DNA from: a phage
Sequence record: PX136376.1
DNA: 44,388 nucleotides
Strand: one strand, 5' to 3'
The position numbers were made by a program, and so were the translations under genes. Position 1 is the first letter of the stretch. Each line of letters begins with the position of its first letter. A model generated the notes under the pieces. The model made no database searches. It was not told the DNA's origin and was given only the letters and a program-made list of their open reading frames with translations. This document shows positions 1 to 44,388 of the stretch, in pieces.

Positions 1-561
1 ATGCAAGGGGATTCTATGAAGCTGAAACTTAAGCAGCCATCGCCAGAGGTGGTGCAAGCTGCACATGAAGAAGCTGTTAGCGCAAACCGTCGCCGTAAAC
101 GACCGCGCGGTAAACAGAGCCTTTATCAATCATCCCGTAATTCTGCGGCATTGTGGGACCCGGACTACTGTGACGCGTTAATCGAGTTCTTCGACCGCAC
201 GTCGTGGGAGCTTGTGCCAACGTCTAAGGGTGATGAACGCCCACTGATTCAGGATAAGCCGCCGTCACTGGCCCGCTTCGCCTTACACATCGGCGTCACT
301 ATCCCTATTATTAAGCTTTGGCTGCGTGAGATTCCCGCATTTGCAGAAGCCTGGGAGACAGCACAGGCGCTGGAAGAGGCATACTTCACTGAGACAGGGG
401 CTGCGGGCATCTCGGCTACGTTTGCCGCGGCTAAACTGGGCCTCAGCAAAGAGAAACCGGTTGCATCCACCGAAGAACCAGCACCGACTGAGATTGTTTT
501 CAGTGTTGCGGAGCCTGTAGGTAAAATCGTAACAACGAACATGGGTGAGGTAGAGGAATGA
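1..561 (+). CDS. putative terminase small subunit
   Basis: 186-aa ORF ending 4 nt inside the start of the terminase large subunit; position-based call, no diagnostic motif recognised; true start uncertain (window begins at this ATG). Confidence 0.4.
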   Translation: MQGDSMKLKLKQPSPEVVQAAHEEAVSANRRRKRPRGKQSLYQSSRNSAALWDPDYCDALIEFFDRTSWELVPTSKGDERPLIQDKPPSLARFALHIGVTIPIIKLWLREIPAFAEAWETAQALEEAYFTETGAAGISATFAAAKLGLSKEKPVASTEEPAPTEIVFSVAEPVGKIVTTNMGEVEE

Positions 562-1808
562 GTATTCAGCTATCCGCACCACAGGCACTGTTCCTGAATT
601 GCGATAACAAATACAAGGCCTATGTCGGAGGCTTCGGTAGCGGCAAGACATTTGTCGGCTGTCTCGACCTGCTTACGTTCATGCTCCGGAACCCGGGTAC
701 CCGCCTGGGCTACTTCGGCCCCACCTACCCGGCTATCCGCGACATCTTCTACCCGACATTCGAGGAAGCGGCTAACCTCCTCGGCCTCGATGTGCTGGTT
801 AAATCTGGCGACAAAGAAGTCGTGGTCACTCGCGGTAAGACGGTGCTCGGAACTGTTATCTGCCGCTCGATGGATAACCCCGGCTCGATAGTCGGCTTCA
901 AAATCGCGGCTGCGGTCGTGGATGAGCTGGACGTATTGAGCCGTGAGAAAGCCGAGCTGGCGTGGAACAAAATCGTAGCCCGCATGCGTCTGGTTATCCC
1001 GGGGGTAATTAACCACATCTCCGTCACCACGACTCCGGAAGGGTTCAAGTTCGTTTACGCCAAGTTCAAGGAGAACCCGACGCCGAGTTACTCAATGGTG
1101 CAGGCGTCCACTCACGAGAACGCCAGATTCCTGCCGCCGGATTACATTAGCTCGCTGACTGAGACTTACCCGGCGCAACTGATTAACGCGTATCTGAACG
1201 GTGAGTTTGTCAACCTGACATCCGGAAGCGTGTATTACGCATACGACCGACGCAAGCACCGCAGCAAAGAGACAATTCAACCGGGCGACACGCTGTACAT
1301 CGGGCAGGACTTCAACGTTACGAAGAACGCCAGCGCCGTGTATGTGCAGCGTAAAGATGGATGGCACGCGGTTGCAGAACTGAAGGGCCTGTTCGATACG
1401 CCGGACACCGTGCGCGTAATTACCGAGAAGTGGAAGTCACAAGGCCACCGCATCGTCGTTTACCCCGACGCTAGCGGCAAGAACCGTAAGACAAACTCGG
1501 CGTCAATCTCTGATATTGCATTACTCCAGCAGGCGGGTTTCGATGTTCGCGCTAAATCAGCCAACCCCCCGGTTAAAGACCGCGTTTTAGCCGTGAACAC
1601 CGCGCTGGAAAAAGGTAAGCTGTGGGTTAATGACCACTTATGTCCTGAGATAGCCAAGACGCTGGAACAGCAGGCATACGACGATAACGGAGAGCCGGCT
1701 AAAGACGGCGTCATTGACCATATGGCTGATGCTCTCGGCTATCCTGTAGTTTATGAGATGCCGGTGGTTAAACCAGTAATCAACATCCCGGTGACTTTCG
1801 CACTTTAA
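558..1808 (+). CDS. terminase large subunit
   Basis: 416 aa; Walker A-like GGFGSGKT near N-terminus; RBS gaggtagagg before ATG; canonical position upstream of portal. Confidence 0.85.
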   Translation: MSIQLSAPQALFLNCDNKYKAYVGGFGSGKTFVGCLDLLTFMLRNPGTRLGYFGPTYPAIRDIFYPTFEEAANLLGLDVLVKSGDKEVVVTRGKTVLGTVICRSMDNPGSIVGFKIAAAVVDELDVLSREKAELAWNKIVARMRLVIPGVINHISVTTTPEGFKFVYAKFKENPTPSYSMVQASTHENARFLPPDYISSLTETYPAQLINAYLNGEFVNLTSGSVYYAYDRRKHRSKETIQPGDTLYIGQDFNVTKNASAVYVQRKDGWHAVAELKGLFDTPDTVRVITEKWKSQGHRIVVYPDASGKNRKTNSASISDIALLQQAGFDVRAKSANPPVKDRVLAVNTALEKGKLWVNDHLCPEIAKTLEQQAYDDNGEPAKDGVIDHMADALGYPVVYEMPVVKPVINIPVTFAL

Positions 1809-1820
1809 GAGGATTATTAA

Positions 1821-3293
1821 ATGTTAACTATGAACGGTCAGAATCAGGGTGTTAAGACAAAACACCGGGAATGGCTGCATCACTTCGATAAATGGCAGAA
1901 GGTACGCCACGCGCTGGAAGGCGACCTTATTCGCTATCTGCGCAACGTCGGGAAGAACGAACCTGACCCGACCTACGCAGCCCAGCGCCAGGAAGAATAC
2001 GAGAACGGTGCTATCTGTTACAACTTCACTAAACGTACCCTGGCGGGGATGACGGGGTCAGTGATGCGCAAAGACCCTGAGCAGATTATCCCGCCTGAAC
2101 TTGAGTACCTGTTGCACAACGCTGACGGTTCGGGTGTAGGGCTGTGGCAGCACGCGCAGGATACGTTAATGGAGATTGACTCGATAGGACGCGGTGGGTT
2201 GCTGGTGGATGCCCCGGAAACAGCCGCAGCAACGGCGGCAGAGCAGAACGCGGGATTATTAAACCCGGTAATCGCATTCTATACCGCGGAGAACATTATC
2301 AACTGGAGACTCACCCGCATCGGTTCAGTGAACCGCGTGACGATGGTTGTATTGCGTGAGGCATGGGAATACTCGGAACCAGGCACTGAGTTTGAAACAA
2401 AATTCGGCGAGCAATACCGCGTCCTTGACCTGATTGATGGGCGCTACCGCCAGCGCATTTACCGCTTCGATGCAGAAGGTGGCGCACAGGGTGACGTAAA
2501 ACAAATCTTCCCGGAACTTGGCGGGCAATTGCGCGGTAAAATCCCGTTCACGTTTATTGGGGCAAGCAACAACGATGCGACCATCGACGACGCCCCTTTG
2601 CTACCGTTAGCTGAGCTTAATATCGGACATTTCCGCAACAGCGCAGACAATGAGGAATCCAGCTTCGTCGTGGGCCAACCCACTCTGTTCATCGCCCCCG
2701 GTGAGAACATGAGCATGGAGCAGTGGGCAGAAGCCAACCCACACGGCGTGCGCATGGGGTCGCGTTCAGGCCATAACATCGGTTACGGCGGAAACGCGTT
2801 CCTGGTCCAGGCGGGGGAAAACAACCTCGCCAAACAGAACATGCTGGATAAAGAGAATCAGGCAATCCAGATTGGCGCGCAGCTTATCACCCCGACGCAG
2901 CAAATCACCGCTGAATCGGCCCGTCTGCAACGCGGCGCTGATACGTCTGTTATGGCGACAATCGCACGTAACGTAAGCATGGCGTATACCGATGCGTTGC
3001 GCTGGGTAGCTGCGATGCTTGGGCTGCGTGAAGGCACAGAGGTTGAGTTCAAGCTGAATATGGAGTTCTTCCTGCAACCGATGACAGCTCAGGACCGCGC
3101 TCAGTGGATGGCGGATATTAACGCGGGCCTGTTACCCGCAACTGCTTACTATGCTGCGTTGCGCAAGGCGGGTGTAACTGACTGGACCGACGAGGACATT
3201 CAGACCGCTATCGAAGATGCACCGTTGCCATTAGGTACTGTTACTCAGGTGGCGGGGGAGATTCCTCCGTCGGCGCAGCAGCAACAGGAGTAA
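1821..3293 (+). CDS. portal protein
   Basis: 490 aa directly after terminase large subunit; RBS aagagga; size and position typical of portal; no motif-level confirmation. Confidence 0.7.
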   Translation: MLTMNGQNQGVKTKHREWLHHFDKWQKVRHALEGDLIRYLRNVGKNEPDPTYAAQRQEEYENGAICYNFTKRTLAGMTGSVMRKDPEQIIPPELEYLLHNADGSGVGLWQHAQDTLMEIDSIGRGGLLVDAPETAAATAAEQNAGLLNPVIAFYTAENIINWRLTRIGSVNRVTMVVLREAWEYSEPGTEFETKFGEQYRVLDLIDGRYRQRIYRFDAEGGAQGDVKQIFPELGGQLRGKIPFTFIGASNNDATIDDAPLLPLAELNIGHFRNSADNEESSFVVGQPTLFIAPGENMSMEQWAEANPHGVRMGSRSGHNIGYGGNAFLVQAGENNLAKQNMLDKENQAIQIGAQLITPTQQITAESARLQRGADTSVMATIARNVSMAYTDALRWVAAMLGLREGTEVEFKLNMEFFLQPMTAQDRAQWMADINAGLLPATAYYAALRKAGVTDWTDEDIQTAIEDAPLPLGTVTQVAGEIPPSAQQQQE

Positions 3294-3296
3294 AGA

Positions 3297-3325
3297 AAAA
3301 GGCCCCTTACAGGGCCTTAGTTTTA
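3297..3325. terminator. bidirectional rho-independent terminator (family copy 1)
   Basis: inverted repeat AAGGCCC/GGGCCTT with A-tract upstream and T-rich tract downstream, between convergent genes; stronger reading on minus strand. Confidence 0.55.
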
Positions 3326-3844
3326 TTTAACTCGCGCAGGCATTAACACCATAAATGCTGTATTTGAAAATGATATTTTACATCCTCTTGTTTGGTCCTG
3401 GAAATCGAAACGGGCAAATTCATTTTTGTATGCCTTAGAAATCTTGTACGCGTCCGCCAAATAGCGCAGAGTGAACCCTATGCTATCTACAGCACCTGGA
3501 GTAATGCGCGCCACGCGTCGCCAGTCAGGAAATTTTCCGTCTACAACATCAACCGGAAGGGTACATATAAGCGCACGACTATCGTCATAGAAAGAAACAT
3601 TGCCGTTGTCGTGGTCTACCTCAGCGTAGTTAAATTTAGAAGGCTCCCTCCCTTTGATGTCTATGAGAACTCCCGTTTCAACGTTTGTCTTCACATTGTC
3701 GCAGAACAATCTATGGCCATCCGTAGAAACTATCAATCCTTCAGGGTCTATGTAAAAAGCGTTAAAATAGTAGCGCACATCATTTTTAGCCCTGCAGATT
3801 TTCGCCCCTACATACGCGGGGAAAGTAATTACTGTAGTAACCAT
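3323..3844 (-). CDS. beta sliding clamp (DnaN)-like protein lacking clamp domain I
   Basis: 173 aa; motifs DVRYYFNA, LIVSTDGHRLF, VDGKFPDWRRV and C-terminal FMVLMPARVK resemble E. coli DnaN domain II/III motifs (recalled from memory); AGGAG RBS 8 nt before ATG; own promoter element upstream. Confidence 0.7.
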   Translation of the reverse strand: MVTTVITFPAYVGAKICRAKNDVRYYFNAFYIDPEGLIVSTDGHRLFCDNVKTNVETGVLIDIKGREPSKFNYAEVDHDNGNVSFYDDSRALICTLPVDVVDGKFPDWRRVARITPGAVDSIGFTLRYLADAYKISKAYKNEFARFDFQDQTRGCKISFSNTAFMVLMPARVK

Positions 3845-3863
3845 TTTTCATCTCCTGTTTAAG

Positions 3864-3900
3864 TTAACTGAATAGTACCCTATTATATTGGTGTCTGCAA
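3864..3900 (-). promoter_or_regulatory. conserved promoter/operator element, class 1 copy 1 (overlapping divergent sigma70-like promoters)
   Basis: minus-strand reading TTGCAG-N17-TACTAT toward the DnaN-like gene; plus-strand reading TTAACT-N17-TATATT toward head morphogenesis gene; central palindrome TAATAG-ggta-CTATTC. Confidence 0.5.
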
Positions 3901-3944
3901 ATATTATTTTTATGCGTTACACTGTCGATACTACAGGAGGGCTT

Positions 3945-4988
3945 ATGAGCTTACTTACATCCCTAATCAGCCACCAGATATGGCTACAACGCGCCGCATC
4001 CGGTGAAGTGAAAGACCTCACACCGTTCATTCAGGAAATGCGGGACGAAATCAAACGACAGGTGCTGTTATTCGGCGACGATGGGCGAAGCACTGCGCGA
4101 CTGAATAAACTGTTACGCGACCTCGAAGAGGCACTAACCGGGCTTACCGATGACTGGCAGACAAAGCTGACAGAAGACCTTAAGGAGCTGGCGGCGTATG
4201 AGGCTGAGTGGAACGTAAAGACGCTGACGGCTAACGTTAACGCGGAATTTGTTACACCTACCGCAGAACAGGTGTTGGCCGCTGCCGAGTTTCAGCCTCT
4301 GTCACTAAGGGACAAGCCGGTTGATTTCACTAAGCTGGTGGATGGCTGGGGTGAAACGGAGGTCGCGCGCCTGGTAACCGGCGTTAAGATGGGTTTTGTG
4401 CAAGGCCAGACAACACGGCAGATTATTAAGAATGTTGTTGGTGCCGGTGGGCTGGCGGACATCTCTGAGCGTAACGCAGCTACCGTAATCCGCACTGCGC
4501 TGTCCCACGTATCCAACGAAGCACGTAACGAGACGTATCGCCAGAACGACGACATTATCGAGAAGTACGAGTGGGTGTCAACGCTGGACAGCCGCACCAG
4601 TACGATTTGCAGGGCCAGAGACGGAATGACGTGGGAAATCGGTAAGGGCCCGATGCCGCCAGCGCATCCAAATTGTCGAAGTACCACAGCCCCGGTGATA
4701 AGTTCCGAGTTCGACTTCCTGGACGTAGGAGCTAAACGCGCGGCTAAAGGCGCAGACGGCGGTACCCAGGTAAGCGCGGACACCACCTATTACGAGTTCC
4801 TGAAACAACAACCAGCGTGGTTTCAGGATGAAGCGCTCGGCCCGGTGCGGGGTAAGATTTTCCGTAACAGTGGTATAACGCCGGAAGAGTTTCGCGTAAT
4901 ATCTGTAGATGGTTTCGGGAACCCGCTCACGCTTAAGCAGATGGCGGAACTCGATAAACGTGTTGCTGATTATCTGAAAGGGGAATAA
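3945..4988 (+). CDS. head morphogenesis protein (Mu F / SPP1 gp7-like minor head protein)
   Basis: C-terminal region contains HPNCRS motif typical of the Mu-F family; RBS acaggaggg before ATG at 3945 (ORF track frame opens at 3888); follows portal. Confidence 0.7.
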   Translation: MSLLTSLISHQIWLQRAASGEVKDLTPFIQEMRDEIKRQVLLFGDDGRSTARLNKLLRDLEEALTGLTDDWQTKLTEDLKELAAYEAEWNVKTLTANVNAEFVTPTAEQVLAAAEFQPLSLRDKPVDFTKLVDGWGETEVARLVTGVKMGFVQGQTTRQIIKNVVGAGGLADISERNAATVIRTALSHVSNEARNETYRQNDDIIEKYEWVSTLDSRTSTICRARDGMTWEIGKGPMPPAHPNCRSTTAPVISSEFDFLDVGAKRAAKGADGGTQVSADTTYYEFLKQQPAWFQDEALGPVRGKIFRNSGITPEEFRVISVDGFGNPLTLKQMAELDKRVADYLKGE

Positions 4989-5449
4989 TGATGGGCTTTT
5001 TCAAAGTAACTGATGTACCGTCGCGTCGCGTAGTCCAGTACGCCCGTGTGTCTGGCTCTGGCGAGAACGTGGTATTTATTGAAAATGAAAGTGTACTCGG
5101 TACACCAGTAGACGATATGCCGTTTGCTGATAAAACCGGTATTGCACTACCGGCGGCGGGTATGCTTTATGAAATTCCGTATCTGGCTGATGCTGGTGAT
5201 GTGTATTTCTCGGTGCAACCGAAAGACACGGAACTGGCAGACGGCAGCGCAACTATCACTGTCGAAGTTAAGGCGGGTAAAGCGCCGTATGCGCTGACCT
5301 GGTACAAAGACGGCAAGGAAGTGGTCAACGCCCCTGAAGAAGCTTTGTCTCTGACGGTTAACGCGGTGGGTGAATACTTCGTTAAAGTCACCGATGCCGA
5401 TGGGGTAGAGGCCGTCAGTAAAGCTGCGAAGGTTACTAAGCCGGAATGA
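4988..5449 (+). CDS. Ig-like domain protein (possible capsid accessory/decoration protein)
   Basis: 153 aa; beta-rich segment ...ALTWYKDGKEV...EYFVKVTDADG resembling an Ig-like fold; start overlaps preceding stop. Confidence 0.5.
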   Translation: MMGFFKVTDVPSRRVVQYARVSGSGENVVFIENESVLGTPVDDMPFADKTGIALPAAGMLYEIPYLADAGDVYFSVQPKDTELADGSATITVEVKAGKAPYALTWYKDGKEVVNAPEEALSLTVNAVGEYFVKVTDADGVEAVSKAAKVTKPE

Positions 5450-5519
5450 TAAAAAGCCGGAATGATAAAAAGCCGGAATGATAAAAAGCCGGAATGATAA
5501 AAAGCCGGAATGATAAAAA
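5440..5519. repeat. perfect tandem repeat, 5 copies of 16-bp unit GCCGGAATGATAAAAA
   Basis: read directly; first unit contains the stop codon of the 4988..5449 CDS; array abuts a terminator hairpin. Confidence 0.95.
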
Positions 5520-5545
5520 GCCCCGCTATGGGGCTTTATTTTTAT
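5515..5545 (+). terminator. rho-independent terminator
   Basis: stem AAAGCCCC/GGGGCTTT with loop GCTAT followed by TTTATTTTT. Confidence 0.65.
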
Positions 5546-6203: not shown

Positions 6204-6427
6204 CCACCTGAGCTTGTGAAGTATGAACAAGCGACCGCGGCGCGGGCAGGTAACGGAGCGGGACGTAAGTCCTGAGTGTAGTTACGCTGACGCGTTCGGA
6301 AGGGCCATACTCTATTGCTTGTGTAAAAAGTAACTGGTTTACTGAGATTACGCCGTTTCTATGTTTAAATGATAAGGACTAGCGCCCCGCTTTATGGCGG
6401 GGCTTTACTTATCGAGAAAGGGGAAAC

Positions 6428-8773: not shown

Positions 8774-8803
8774 CGAGAGGGACTTCGGTCCCTCTTTTCA
8801 TTT
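8774..8803 (+). terminator. rho-independent terminator (UUCG tetraloop)
   Basis: stem AGAGGGAC/GTCCCTCT, loop TTCG, followed by TTTTCATTT. Confidence 0.7.
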
Positions 8804-13076: not shown

Positions 13077-13106
13077 AACTAAGGCCCCGAAAGGGGCCTT
13101 TTTTAT
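13077..13106. terminator. bidirectional rho-independent terminator (family copy 2)
   Basis: AAGGCCCC-GAAA-GGGGCCTT followed by TTTTTTATT; sits between convergent major tail gene and minus-strand cassette. Confidence 0.7.
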
Positions 13107-13336
13107 TACTCATCAATGTTACTCCTGTACTCCCGTAACTTTTCCAGACTTTCAATTGCTTCCGCTAAGTCGGTTCCGGTGTCCTTGTGTCCACGTAAAC
13201 CCATGCACAATAGCTTCTTCAATGCGTGCTGTAACGCCGGGTCGCGGATGTCGAAAGCGCGGAGCACATCATAAACGTCTACTGTCATAGTGCTGCCGTG
13301 AGTATTTGTCATTGTGCGGTTGTATTTTGAAGTCAT
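13106..13336 (-). CDS. hypothetical protein (76 aa), last gene of minus-strand cassette
   Basis: start overlaps stop of upstream gene (ATGA); no recognised motif. Confidence 0.45.
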   Translation of the reverse strand: MTSKYNRTMTNTHGSTMTVDVYDVLRAFDIRDPALQHALKKLLCMGLRGHKDTGTDLAEAIESLEKLREYRSNIDE

Positions 13337-14463
13337 CCCAGCATCTCCGGTGAAATAGTTAAACGTGCGACCTCGCCATATTCGGCGCTATAAGTAATTA
13401 CATTTGCACTGCGGCCTGACATCCACCCGCCGCGGGAGGCATAGGCGTCTTTAGCCGCTAAGGTGCGGTGTTGCTCAACAATCATGTTACGGCTTTCTAC
13501 AATCTTCTGGTGGTGCAGGTGGCCTACGTGGGCGTAGCTATAGACACTCTCACCGAACGCTTTGCGGAATTTGGCAATCATAACCGGTTCGATAGCATCG
13601 AATCGCGCCTTATGCCCGTGGTGAAAGAACAACGTCGTTTTTCCGTGTTGCACCATCTTGTAAACATCCGGCGACGTATCGACAATCACTCGGCTGTCGT
13701 TCGAATATAAAACTGTGAACATTTCAGCCAGCCATACAGAGCCTACAGGGTCATGGTTCCCCTGTACGATAAGCAAGCGAACATTTTTATGTTTAACCAG
13801 TGCCATATCTACAACACGGCGTACCATACGAATCATGTAGCGGACGAGTTTCTGGTAGCGAGTGTCTGCGTCCAACACGTGACGCGACTCAGGTGTAACG
13901 GCATCCAGACTATCGAAGTGCGCGAAATCACCCAGCAGGTTAATAACTCCTGTTCCTGCATCCGGTGCTTTCTGAAACGCCGCGTCGAACCAACGAGAGA
14001 ACAGGTCTTCCGCAATCTTTATATCCCAGTCGTCGCCGCTCTCGTCGGCCCAGGCAAGCATACCGAGATGGAAATCAGATACCGTGTAAAGATTGAGTAG
14101 CTTGTCGTCGCGTTTGGCTCGAGTCGCTTTAGCCGGCGCAACTGGCGTAATCTCTGACTTCATGCCTTCAATCACGGCTTTCATCAACTCGACCTGACGT
14201 TCAGCGTCGGTGTCTGTCTTAACCCATTGCAACTTAGTATTGCCGAACTCGTCTACCAGAGACGACGTCCCTTTAATCTTGTAGCCGTCTGGGACAAGGT
14301 GGCTAACGTCACGCCCGTGGCCTACACCTTTCTTAGCCAGCTTCGCTTTACGGATACGAATAACTCGGTCTGAGATGCCGTATTTACGGGCGATGTCTAC
14401 ATTCTTCATCCCGGCGTTCAATTCTTCCTGTAACTGTTCGTCGGTTATTTTCTTCTGGGCCAT
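13333..14463 (-). CDS. HTH-domain protein fused to calcineurin-like metallophosphoesterase (Mre11/SbcD-like or phosphatase-like)
   Basis: N-terminal HTH-like segment (NVDIARKYGISDRVIRIRKAKL); metallophosphoesterase motifs DFH, GDFAHFD, GNHD, HHGH, GHLHH; RBS gaggaag. Confidence 0.7.
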   Translation of the reverse strand: MAQKKITDEQLQEELNAGMKNVDIARKYGISDRVIRIRKAKLAKKGVGHGRDVSHLVPDGYKIKGTSSLVDEFGNTKLQWVKTDTDAERQVELMKAVIEGMKSEITPVAPAKATRAKRDDKLLNLYTVSDFHLGMLAWADESGDDWDIKIAEDLFSRWFDAAFQKAPDAGTGVINLLGDFAHFDSLDAVTPESRHVLDADTRYQKLVRYMIRMVRRVVDMALVKHKNVRLLIVQGNHDPVGSVWLAEMFTVLYSNDSRVIVDTSPDVYKMVQHGKTTLFFHHGHKARFDAIEPVMIAKFRKAFGESVYSYAHVGHLHHQKIVESRNMIVEQHRTLAAKDAYASRGGWMSGRSANVITYSAEYGEVARLTISPEMLG

Positions 14464-14855: not shown

Positions 14856-14881
14856 AATTATTTCCTCAGTAAGTTACATGT

Positions 14882-14912
14882 GAATAGTACCCTATTATAT
14901 TGGGGTGTGCAA
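14882..14912 (-). promoter_or_regulatory. conserved promoter/operator element, class 1 copy 3
   Basis: minus-strand TTGCAC-N17-TACTAT upstream of the three-gene cassette; plus-strand TTACAT-N17-TATATT toward tail chaperone gene. Confidence 0.5.
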
Positions 14913-15436: not shown

Positions 15437-15798
15437 AAGCGCTGTATGAATTTGCGCAATGGTGCTTTGTCGACCGCCACAAACGTAAGCAATTCGACGA
15501 CATCGCGGCGGGCCACCAGGCGGCTTTGATTGCAATGGGCGTGATTAAAGAACCGCAGATGAAAGAAGCGACGGGGCCGGAATGCCCCGTTTCTCTTATC
15601 GACGTGTTCGAGAAATACCGTGCCATTAAATTCCTACAGCGCGAAACAGATGATACTATCGTTATAATCCCGCGCGATGCGCTCAAATGGCAAGATTTGG
15701 TAGCGTTTCGTGATGTCGCCGGTTACGGCATAAGTTTGTTCGAAGCCGAGGTTATCATGGGCTTAGACGGAATATTTGAGGGCAGAGAAGATGGCTGA
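15020..15798 (+). CDS. tail assembly chaperone frameshift product (gpGT-like), -1 slip near 15430-15433
   Basis: -1 frame is open from 15418 to 15798; G frame ends GAA AAG TAA, allowing P-site slippage A_AAG to AAA next to the stop codon; conserved G/T arrangement of long-tailed phages. Confidence 0.5.
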
Positions 15799-39096: not shown

Positions 39097-39254
39097 GAGA
39101 AGCATTCGAACGGTGGGCCGTCGTCGATGGTCTGCCGGTTAATAAGGGTTCGAAGAAAGAGTACCTGAACGTTAAGACGCGTCTTGCGTGGCGGGCGTGG
39201 AAAGCTGGTGCGCAATATCGGGCCGGTGTAACAGGCGGTGTAACAGGTCAATAG
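39093..39254 (+). CDS. hypothetical protein (53 aa)
   Basis: ATGA overlap with upstream gene; below ORF-track cutoff. Confidence 0.35.
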   Translation: MREAFERWAVVDGLPVNKGSKKEYLNVKTRLAWRAWKAGAQYRAGVTGGVTGQ

Positions 39255-42501: not shown

Positions 42502-42690
42502 ATGATGACTAAGATTAAGCATACCGATAACTGGGGCGATTCCATGGAGATAGATAAGCTCCGGGACGGGACATTACTTATAACTTGTACTGACGTAGAT
42601 AGCGGCGAATTGGTTAGTGTTAACGTGAGTATGGATGATTTTATGATTATTGTTGGGCAAGTGGCAGCTTTTTACGGAGATGATAGATGA
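42502..42690 (+). CDS. hypothetical protein (62 aa)
   Basis: ATG with RBS-like gagagaa. Confidence 0.45.
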   Translation: MMTKIKHTDNWGDSMEIDKLRDGTLLITCTDVDSGELVSVNVSMDDFMIIVGQVAAFYGDDR

Positions 42691-43721: not shown

Positions 43722-43891
43722 TGTTCAGCGACATCAACGCAGCAATCGAAGAAGCAATCTGGCGCCGTTACAACGGCGAGCAACAGCGTCACTTCTGCCT
43801 GGTGCAACGTGGTAACATGGTCGCCGTGGTGCAGGACCGCGATAACAAATATCCGAATGCGATGTGGACAACGAGGAATTTCTTAGGATGA
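43721..43891 (+). CDS. hypothetical protein (56 aa)
   Basis: TAATG overlap with upstream ORF; tentative. Confidence 0.35.
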   Translation: MFSDINAAIEEAIWRRYNGEQQRHFCLVQRGNMVAVVQDRDNKYPNAMWTTRNFLG

Positions 43892-44124
43892 TTACCAGCA
43901 TTCCTAACCTGATTAAAGAATTTGGTACGATGGCGGAGACATGCCGACAAACCGGTATCAACGAAATGACGATTGCTAAGTACAGTAAAGACGTTGATTG
44001 TGAGCGCCACGTAATTTATAACAATCGTCTGATGACGCACGTTAAGACTAGCCCGGTGTTATTCACGCGCCGTGGTATCACTAAAACTGAGCAACGTATT
44101 GCTAAAGAGGAGAGTGGAGAATGA
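43888..44124 (+). CDS. hypothetical protein with possible HTH (78 aa)
   Basis: ATGA overlap; segment AETCRQTGINEMTIAKYSK is HTH-like. Confidence 0.4.
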   Translation: MITSIPNLIKEFGTMAETCRQTGINEMTIAKYSKDVDCERHVIYNNRLMTHVKTSPVLFTRRGITKTEQRIAKEESGE

Positions 44125-44276
44125 AAAAGTTAACTATCTACTGGAAAACAGGGGCTACGTCAGAACTCGATGTTTTCAGCGTAACGCAGTGTGAAAAGTT
44201 CTGGTATGCCGAAACATTCAACGGTGAAGAGAGAATACCAATCGCACTGGTAGACGGCGGCGATATAACAGAATAA
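44121..44276 (+). CDS. hypothetical protein (51 aa)
   Basis: ATGA overlap; followed by terminator. Confidence 0.35.
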   Translation: MKKLTIYWKTGATSELDVFSVTQCEKFWYAETFNGEERIPIALVDGGDITE

Positions 44277-44285
44277 CCAACCCAC

Positions 44286-44309
44286 AAGCCCTCTACGGAG
44301 GGCTTTTCT
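44286..44309 (+). terminator. rho-independent terminator
   Basis: AAGCCCTC-TACG-GAGGGCTT followed by TTTTCT. Confidence 0.65.
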
Positions 44310-44388
44310 GTACATCCCGCCCAATCCCCTTATATAATCCATTTAGACGCGTAGGGCGCGTCTGGTGCGCTCTGATGGTCAGACGCAT

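Follow-up and report, generated by a model that had tools for sequence, protein, structure and literature searches.

A predicted promoter and two-hairpin leader RNA ahead of the terminase genes in Kagunavirus and related phages

Do the bases that lead into the small terminase gene (terS) of this phage hold a promoter, a packaging site, or both? The window, i.e., the whole stretch of DNA analyzed here, is 44,388 nt long (PX136376.1). Near its end, a sequence-only reading had called TATATAAT at 44331-44338 and an inverted repeat at 44345-44363, and both motifs are indeed found there. As bare motifs they do not go beyond chance; their significance comes from conservation among relatives. The window has 21 copies of TATAAT and 46 perfect inverted repeats of 7 bp with 3- to 8-nt loops (17 ± 5.5 in shuffles), and a promoter scan of the last 2.4 kb gives 7 sites where 3.0 are expected.

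Comparison with relatives leads us to read the last ∼100 bases as the probable control region of the packaging and morphogenesis operon, comprising a promoter and a cis-acting leader RNA. We give this reading a probability of roughly 0.6. The region is shared by the Guernseyvirinae and the genus Dhillonvirus, which rank with the most frequently isolated phages of E. coli and Salmonella and find use in therapy and as chassis for engineering. Table 1 collects the features discussed below.

Table 1. Features at the junction of the window's end and start, with the first genes of the operon
Feature	Position	Strand	Description
Intrinsic terminator	44286-44309	+	stem AAGCCCTC/GAGGGCTT, loop TACG, T-tract TTTTCT
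-35-like hexamer TGTACA	44309-44314	+	4/6 match; overlaps end of terminator T-tract
Promoter spacer, 18 nt	44315-44332	+	sequence varies, length kept
-10 hexamer TATAAT	44333-44338	+	TATAAT or TACAAT in every relative
Predicted transcription start, A	44345	+	7th base after the -10, from the usual -10 to +1 distance
Hairpin 1 (HP1)	44345-44363	+	7-8 bp stem, AGG triloop; extreme 5' end of predicted transcript
Hairpin 2 (HP2)	44365-44388	+	outer 5 bp, bulge C44370, inner 5 bp, UGG triloop
Shine-Dalgarno AAGGGG (terS)	5-10	+	unpaired in predicted fold
terS, first operon gene	16-561	+	phrog_3064 terminase, E = 4e-72
terL	558-1808	+	Terminase_6N + Terminase_6C
portal	1821-3293	+	DUF4055

The closed genome and the start of terS

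The window is the complete, circularly closed genome of a virulent E. coli siphophage of the Jersey-like type, genus Kagunavirus (Guernseyvirinae), whose nearest relatives are vB_EcoS_XY2, 590B and Bas74. It is collinear with the genome of 590B and circularly permuted relative to it, such that window position 1 corresponds to 590B position 42656 and window position 44388 to 42655. In addition, the end and the start of the window are joined without a break in fEg-Eco19, CR01, EF2-1 and BUCT825. The collinearity and the contiguity together establish that the genome is whole and closed as a circle, as the sequence-only reading had supposed, and that the record was cut open at an ATG. That reading had also raised the idea that the genome is terminally redundant or permuted, which agrees with reports on relatives that describe headful packaging with redundant or permuted ends (PMC10783031, PMC9409062, PMC6776780, PMC6776784, PMC6763661, PMC6753286). 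Gene order differs at one place: a block with a - strand ORF at 3323-3844 (block 3297-3909) stands before the head-gene block (3944-5458) in the window, and after it in XY2 and partly in 590B, so that it appears to be a transposed cassette.

The ATG at which the record was opened had been taken as the start of terS, and this assignment has to be given up. ATG 1 is in frame with terS, but several Kagunavirus relatives and every other lineage, Jerseyvirus included, lack it. The conserved start is ATG 16, the equivalent of which is annotated in Jersey_01 and 590B, and a purine-rich Shine-Dalgarno sequence lies 6-10 nt 5' of the terS start in all lineages. Three alternative starts are in circulation: ATG 1 (the window's opening), GTG 44365 (the XY2 and Sciku annotations) and ATG 16 (Jersey, 590B). 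A further ATG within the HP2 loop, at 44375, opens a 10-codon ORF that runs to position 19, where its TGA (17-19) overlaps the terS ATG (16-18); this arrangement is not conserved in the other lineages.

The terminator and the predicted promoter

We aligned the region before terS from 50 IMG/VR relatives; a search of IMG/VR with a TerS alignment added no loci to these 50. In this alignment, the terminator and all that follows it are conserved. Upstream of it, gene content is mosaic right up to the terminator, with at least five unrelated contexts among the relatives (L003-L052) and a sharp boundary at ∼44280, just 5' of the terminator. In the window, the control region is preceded by a nin-like gene cluster that includes a NinH-like ORF at 43864-44124.

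The terminator hairpin (44286-44305, followed by TTTTCT) was missed by a consensus scan because its stem takes up part of the T-run. RNAalifold predicts it independently, and its folding energy is -14.8 kcal/mol (z -3.8). Of 26 distinct relatives, 7 have G-C in place of its pair T44292-A44299, a compensatory change, and the helix as a whole is 96.6% paired. The terminator also occupies the same place in six of six lineages. With a G+C-rich hairpin, a T-run and pairing that has been kept in evolution, it has the properties of an intrinsic terminator, and it closes the upstream small-gene/lysis unit.

The promoter begins where the terminator ends. The scan match is TGTACA-18-TATAAT at 44309-44338, with 10 of 12 positions agreeing with consensus. 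How much of this is kept by selection can be judged against the four-fold degenerate sites of terS, which are 35-51% identical between the window and Jerseyvirus and serve as a neutral yardstick. The spacer behaves like these sites, with 6-7 of 18 positions identical to Jerseyvirus, and its length is 18 in both Kagunavirus and Jerseyvirus. The block formed by the T-run and the -35 is identical at 9 of 9 positions and the -10 at 5 of 6 (TACAAT), and the hairpins are close behind (HP1, 15-16 of 19; HP2, 22 of 25). By this comparison, the four-fold sites and the spacer are near saturation between the two genera, and both hexamers and the hairpins have been kept. Hexamers that are retained across a drifting spacer of fixed length are the signature of a working promoter, and the substitution pattern shows purifying selection on them.

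More distant phages tell the same story. A perfect TATAAT is found in the St162-like, Klebsiella, Serratia and Dhillonvirus lineages, and the element sits in the same place in six lineages. Upstream of it, three of the other lineages have TTGCCT at 17 nt and Dhillonvirus has an extended -10, TGTTATAAT. The locus thus has a -10 at or near TATAAT, either a -35 at suitable spacing or an extended -10, and conserved hexamers; the -35 match is weak but conserved. From these features, we infer that 44309-44338 is a host sigma-70 promoter of the packaging and morphogenesis operon, with a start at about A44345. It would be active late. Nothing was found in the literature on where transcription starts, or on leader structure, in these genera, and comparison with relatives now pins down a promoter in phages without a known structural-gene switch. 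The promoter may need an activator, or may be a minor one, because its -35 is weak (4/6, with an 18-nt spacer).

Two observations bear on promoters in these genomes more generally. First, Salmonella phages L223 and SE129_1TP2 (L106 and L107) combine a Kagunavirus-type spacer, identical to that of the window at 18 of 18 positions, with a Jerseyvirus-type leader and terS, which implies that recombination joined the two types between the -10 and HP1. Second, the window carries three identical near-consensus promoters, TTGACA-17-TATAGT, on the - strand (34892-34864, 31999-31971 and 27514-27486), before leftward replication genes. These are probably strong early promoters, unlike the terS promoter with its weak -35.

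The predicted two-hairpin leader

The inverted repeat is one half of a larger structure. Its arms, AGACGCG (44345-44351) and CGCGTCT (44357-44363), enclose TAGGG, and as RNA the hairpin (HP1) has eight pairs, including T44352.G44356, closed by an AGG triloop (-13.0 kcal/mol, z -4.3). A second hairpin (HP2), which the sequence-only reading did not list, follows after a single nucleotide, G44364, and ends at the last base of the window (-11.4 kcal/mol, z -2.7). Together, the two fold at -22.4 kcal/mol (z -3.2). In a fold of 44345 to +18, the terS Shine-Dalgarno sequence is predicted to be single-stranded. RNAalifold predicts the same three helices independently. HP1 occurs once in the window, and the leader element as a whole is present in a single copy per genome: a covariance model gives 57.9 bits to 44344-44388 and 12.8 bits to the next best match in the window. 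Elsewhere, at 39175-39184, the perfect palindrome AGACGCGTCT equals the HP1 arms without the loop; this may be chance.

Among 26 Guernseyvirinae sequences, the leader helices are 98.1% paired. The HP2 pair C44372-G44382 becomes A-T in Jerseyvirus, the HP1 pair G44351-C44357 becomes U.G, and the change of A44347 to G, which gives a G.U pair, arose in three lineages. The most variable position is the HP2 bulge base, C44370.

The leader is also found in the St162/TS6-like phages, Klebsiella phage VLCpiS11a, Serratia phage Otaku and the genus Dhillonvirus. These loci were reached through TerS homology or blastn and not through the motif, and the distances involved are large: in the St162/TS6-like phages, TerS is 27% and TerL 55% identical to that of the window. 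Every lineage has the same order of elements, i.e., terminator, -35-like hexamer or extended -10, TATAAT, 6-9 nt, HP1, 0-2 nt, HP2, 12-22 nt containing a Shine-Dalgarno sequence, and terS. Across lineages, the stem sequences have been largely replaced (HP1 arms include GTGGCCC/GGGCCGC and AGATGGC/GCCGTCT). What does not vary is the triloops (AGG/UGG in HP1 and UGG in HP2), the distance from loop to loop (GGG-N17-KATGGT) and an imperfection in the middle of HP2.

To measure covariation, we used a gap-free alignment of 49 columns with 18 sequences from six lineages. In it, 92.1% of the cells are paired, compared with 24-56% in slid controls, and two-sided changes are seen at 16 of 19 pairs. On each of five measures, 500 shuffles all fell short of the observed value. 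Two-sided changes across lineages affect seven of the nine HP1 pairs, and the inner stem of HP2 is 100% paired, with four of its five pairs covarying. The two strands can be told apart in HP1. In its core of seven pairs, 126 of 126 cells are paired on the + strand (26 of them as G.U), compared with 100 of 126 (79.4%) on the - strand. The same comparison is symmetric for HP2 and is uninformative on strand. The tolerance of G.U pairs in HP1 on the + strand only points to selection of the structure on the sense strand, as RNA.

Covariation beyond that of the controls and the sense-strand specificity of HP1 are the properties of a conserved RNA structure. The alignments show both helices to be under purifying selection and to covary, with a G.U pattern that fits only the + strand, and they show that the module recurs in at least six lineages. 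With just six to eight lineages, which are related to one another, the number of covariation events is limited. At least two further metagenomic variants, L251 (2438-2488) and L256 (reverse strand), have different stems and the same AGG/UGG loops; the search pattern that yielded them prescribes the loops, which makes the loop identity true by construction. The loose motif scan of IMG/VR in which they turned up gave mostly chance matches among the matches listed. Further lineages with the leader probably exist beyond these two.

By these comparisons, the hairpin called from sequence belongs to a bipartite leader RNA motif that is common to the Guernseyvirinae and Dhillonvirus and absent from Rfam. 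The covariance models of Rfam 15 gave zero matches to 43900-44388 at E ≤ 1, and no description of such a bipartite leader motif was found in the searchable literature. The late operon is thereby headed by an RNA element with covariation support, which offers definite targets for mutation (two stems, two triloops and a fixed spacing) and a covariance model as a possible seed for a new RNA family.

Possible roles of the leader and competing explanations

How would such a leader work? The terminator at 44286-44309 would insulate the operon from the upstream unit. The sigma-70 promoter at 44309-44338 would then fire, and the transcript would begin at about A44345 with a 59-nt leader (44345 to window position 15). 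Its first 44 nt would fold into HP1 and HP2, with their NGG triloops held at a fixed mutual distance, and would be followed by an open Shine-Dalgarno sequence and the terS ATG at 16. The hairpins would act as sense-strand RNA, burying the 5' end and shielding the long late transcript from decay by the 5'-end-dependent route (RppH/RNase E), and the two invariant loops would probably also be a docking surface for a conserved factor. The genes at stake are terS, terL and portal, followed by ∼25 kb of structural genes on the + strand.

In E. coli, a stem-loop at the 5' terminus of an mRNA blocks the entry of RppH and RNase E. For this reason we take 5'-end protection as the most likely main role of a leader RNA here, a tentative choice that we hold at well below even odds. 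HP1 lies 0-3 unpaired nt from the predicted start (the 7th base after the -10) in five of six lineages; in St162, there are 4 unpaired nt 5' of HP1, and the predicted start cuts into HP1. One model is the 5'-terminal stem-loop of the ompA-type 5' UTR, an mRNA stabilizer of E. coli that Emory, Bouvet and Belasco are said to have described in 1992. As in ompA-type stabilizers, a stable hairpin would stand 0-3 nt from the predicted 5' end and is followed by a second hairpin and then by a single-stranded Shine-Dalgarno sequence. The two leaders have no sequence relationship. Unlike ompA-type stabilizers, the phage leader has invariant loops and spacing, which end protection does not require. Plain 5'-end protection leaves the AGG/UGG loops, the loop distance and the HP2 imperfection unexplained. 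The invariant loops and spacing suggest a docking partner that is conserved across lineages, either a host factor or a conserved phage protein. Docking of a factor, or control of translation, is a possible role of the leader RNA, and a less likely one than protection.

The second half of the original proposal, a packaging site, has to be weighed against this. In SPP1, pacL-pacC-pacR overlaps the promoters of gene 1, and in P22 and Sf6, pac lies inside terS. If the element here were a pac site, TerS would recognize its conserved sequences as duplex DNA, and terminase would make the first cut of each headful series at this place. Much about the locus is agreeable to that idea. As in SPP1, a single-copy element stands 5' of terS and overlaps its promoter in a phage family that packages by headful (PMC10783031), and it co-occurs with the TerS family in every lineage. 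TerL is of the Terminase_6N/6C type, and invariant motifs at a fixed spacing could be protein contacts. PhageTerm has assigned headful or pac packaging to Sciku, Shashou, Snoke and Schulenberg (PMC6753286, PMC6776780, PMC6776784, PMC6763661), and K47 gave a P1-like headful result with PhageTerm, a circular EcoRV map and a broad band in PFGE (PMC10783031).

The way in which the element changes argues otherwise. Unlike in headful pac regions, the stems change sequence with pairing kept, as an RNA helix would, and HP1 does so on the + strand only, which is not how a duplex site behaves. The element is also static while TerS diverges: HP1 is identical at 16 of 19 positions in St162, where TerS is 27% identical and its N-terminus is unalignable, so the supposed recognition sequence does not track the protein. 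According to the Sciku record, HHpred matches TerS to gp3 of P22, the phage with pac inside terS. Other relatives have no defined terminus: Se_F1 has redundant, random ends (PMC9409062), and fBC-Eco01 and Shemara have no assignable terminus (PMC9825357, PMC7005123). The published packaging analyses of relatives give no pac coordinate.

Could the starts of deposited records stand in for one? Relatives have been deposited from the equivalents of window position 44353 or 44365, 12 nt apart and within the hairpins. The Sciku record opens at the "RBS" (the AGG of the HP1 loop) of a TerS called from GTG 44365, and the Jersey and BASEL phage records open at the equivalent of that GTG itself. In Kenya-K47 and K14, the first base lies exactly 50 nt before terS, and other Kenya records begin 10 nt before it; we rejected these starts as PhageTerm pac coordinates on account of such fixed 50-nt or 10-nt offsets. 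Record starts inside the hairpin are annotation conventions and not physical termini, which takes away a point that might have favored pac. Several annotation habits can be corrected here, namely the terS start, genome "ends" inside a hairpin and the reading of deposited record starts as physical termini. In all, a pac site at this element appears unlikely. A role at the DNA level, pac among others, may still overlap that of the RNA. Of the two functions first proposed for the junction, the promoter gains from the conserved hexamers and the TATAAT of six lineages, and pac loses to the RNA-like pattern of change.

A more specific version of the leader-RNA reading is that the two hairpins are a signal for processive antitermination across the 25-kb operon, either put-like (acting on RNA polymerase directly) or nut-like (bound by a factor). 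In lambda, as is predicted here, one compact promoter region (PR'-qut-tR') drives a late operon that includes terminase and follows a nin-like cluster. The resemblance ends there. Lambda Q binds between the promoter hexamers, and that region is not conserved in the window's relatives. Moreover, no Q homologue was seen, the first transcribed bases hold no -10-like pause element, and the terminator stands before the promoter, not after it. Another parallel is put of HK022, or more widely the class of RNA-only processive antiterminators that includes put and EAR (PMC11658703). Here, too, two adjacent stem-loops would act in cis, close to the promoter, in the nascent transcript of a long phage operon with terminators; RNA-only antiterminators that act over up to ∼30 kb are known (PMC11658703). 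The leader has its two stem-loops 0-2 nt apart directly after the promoter, and its invariant loops, spacing and HP2 imperfection would suit a specific docking partner. Terminator-like hairpins on the + strand lie within the operon at 3299-3318, 5517-5537, 6384-6403, 8775-8796, 13081-13100 and 15570-15591, and in the stretch from 1 to 20 kb, the scan gave no strong promoter on the + strand.

Against this, the leader motif (44 nt) is shorter than put, and it has neither an Rfam match nor any similarity to the HK022 genome, in which the covariance model of the leader (R1) scored at best 7.5 bits, i.e., no homology to put; the HK022 record carries no annotation of the put sites. Internal terminators are commonly read through in part even where antitermination plays no role, and weak internal promoters exist, e.g., at 14873-14901. 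Antitermination as the function of the leader is an alternative of low probability. We likewise consider it rather improbable that the leader is an undescribed antitermination RNA common to the Guernseyvirinae and Dhillonvirus, whether independent of factors or relying on one that docks through the NGG triloops. If this were true, it would explain how the late genes of a ∼25-kb operon are expressed from one promoter without a recognized late regulator.

Some details of the region can be noted alongside. Four of the six internal + strand hairpins also score on the - strand, and those at 3299 and 13081 adjoin - strand ORFs (3323-3844 and 13333-14463). A boxA-like CGCUCU in HP2 was rejected, as it is not conserved outside Kagunavirus. 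A gene for an "RNA-binding protein" next to the region in Hrm2 was also set aside; its product is an ASCH/DUF3850 protein, and the window lacks the gene.

The inverted repeats might instead be operators at +1, bound by a dimeric phage regulator that times the promoter. The palindromes do overlap the predicted start, the -35 is weaker than that of the TTGACA-17-TATAGT early promoters, and the genome encodes HTH proteins. Operators usually have conserved symmetric arms and are repeated. The element is single copy, and no second copy of the operator or the promoter motif was found elsewhere in the genome. Its half-sites diverge asymmetrically, with G.T on one strand only, and its arms are replaced and its loops fixed, the opposite of an operator. 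We regard this explanation as very improbable.

HP2 could also owe its conservation to protein, if TerS were translated from GTG 44365 or a short upstream ORF were translated. In Kagunavirus, Jerseyvirus and St162, the frame of an RTG at 44365 runs open and in phase into terS, and this codon is the TerS start annotated in XY2 and Sciku. In the Klebsiella and Serratia lineages, the frame is interrupted by a stop, and in Dhillonvirus it is out of phase with terS; the changes in HP2 are paired across the stem and are not codon-like, and the Shine-Dalgarno sequence stands before the equivalent of ATG 16 in all lineages. Upstream ORFs and an N-terminal extension through HP2 were thus rejected as not conserved across lineages, and a coding explanation is most improbable.

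A cos site with a lambda-like 12-nt cohesive end at 44353-44364 (AGGGCGCGTCTG) hardly merits consideration. The sequence resembles the lambda overhang, and the record starts 12 nt apart would suggest one. In addition, G+C-rich sequence tens of bases before terS superficially resembles GGGCGGCGACCT and GGTGCGCAGAGC of lambda and Chi cos, and a published tree groups this TerL family with the 3'-cos terminases of HK97 (PMC11641727). The Pfam assignment of TerL, Terminase_6N/6C with Terminase_3 and not Terminase_1 or GpA, conflicts with that placement. The two record starts are conventions, and PhageTerm, restriction and PFGE results in relatives point to headful packaging (PMC10783031 and others) with redundant or permuted ends (PMC9409062, PMC10783031) instead of unique ends with a cohesive overhang. 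Unlike lambda and Chi, these phages have relatives without fixed ends (PMC10783031) and a TerL of another family, and the resembling bases are confined to Kagunavirus. We rejected a cos site with a 12-nt overhang on these grounds, and also the resemblance to GGTGCGC of Chi cos, which is not conserved outside Kagunavirus.

TerS itself offers some minor observations. A search of the PDB found no sequence relatives of TerS or TerL. The N-terminal region of TerS gives no alignment with the TerS of St162 or Dhillonvirus, and near the N-terminus of the window's protein, residues 24-33 (nt 85-114) form an arginine-rich stretch, NRRRKRPRGK. Among relatives, synonymous codon diversity in terS dips at nt 151-177 and 64-99, to 0.33-0.41 bits compared with a mean of 0.79. 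These dips may be taken as a weak lead to an embedded element such as pac.
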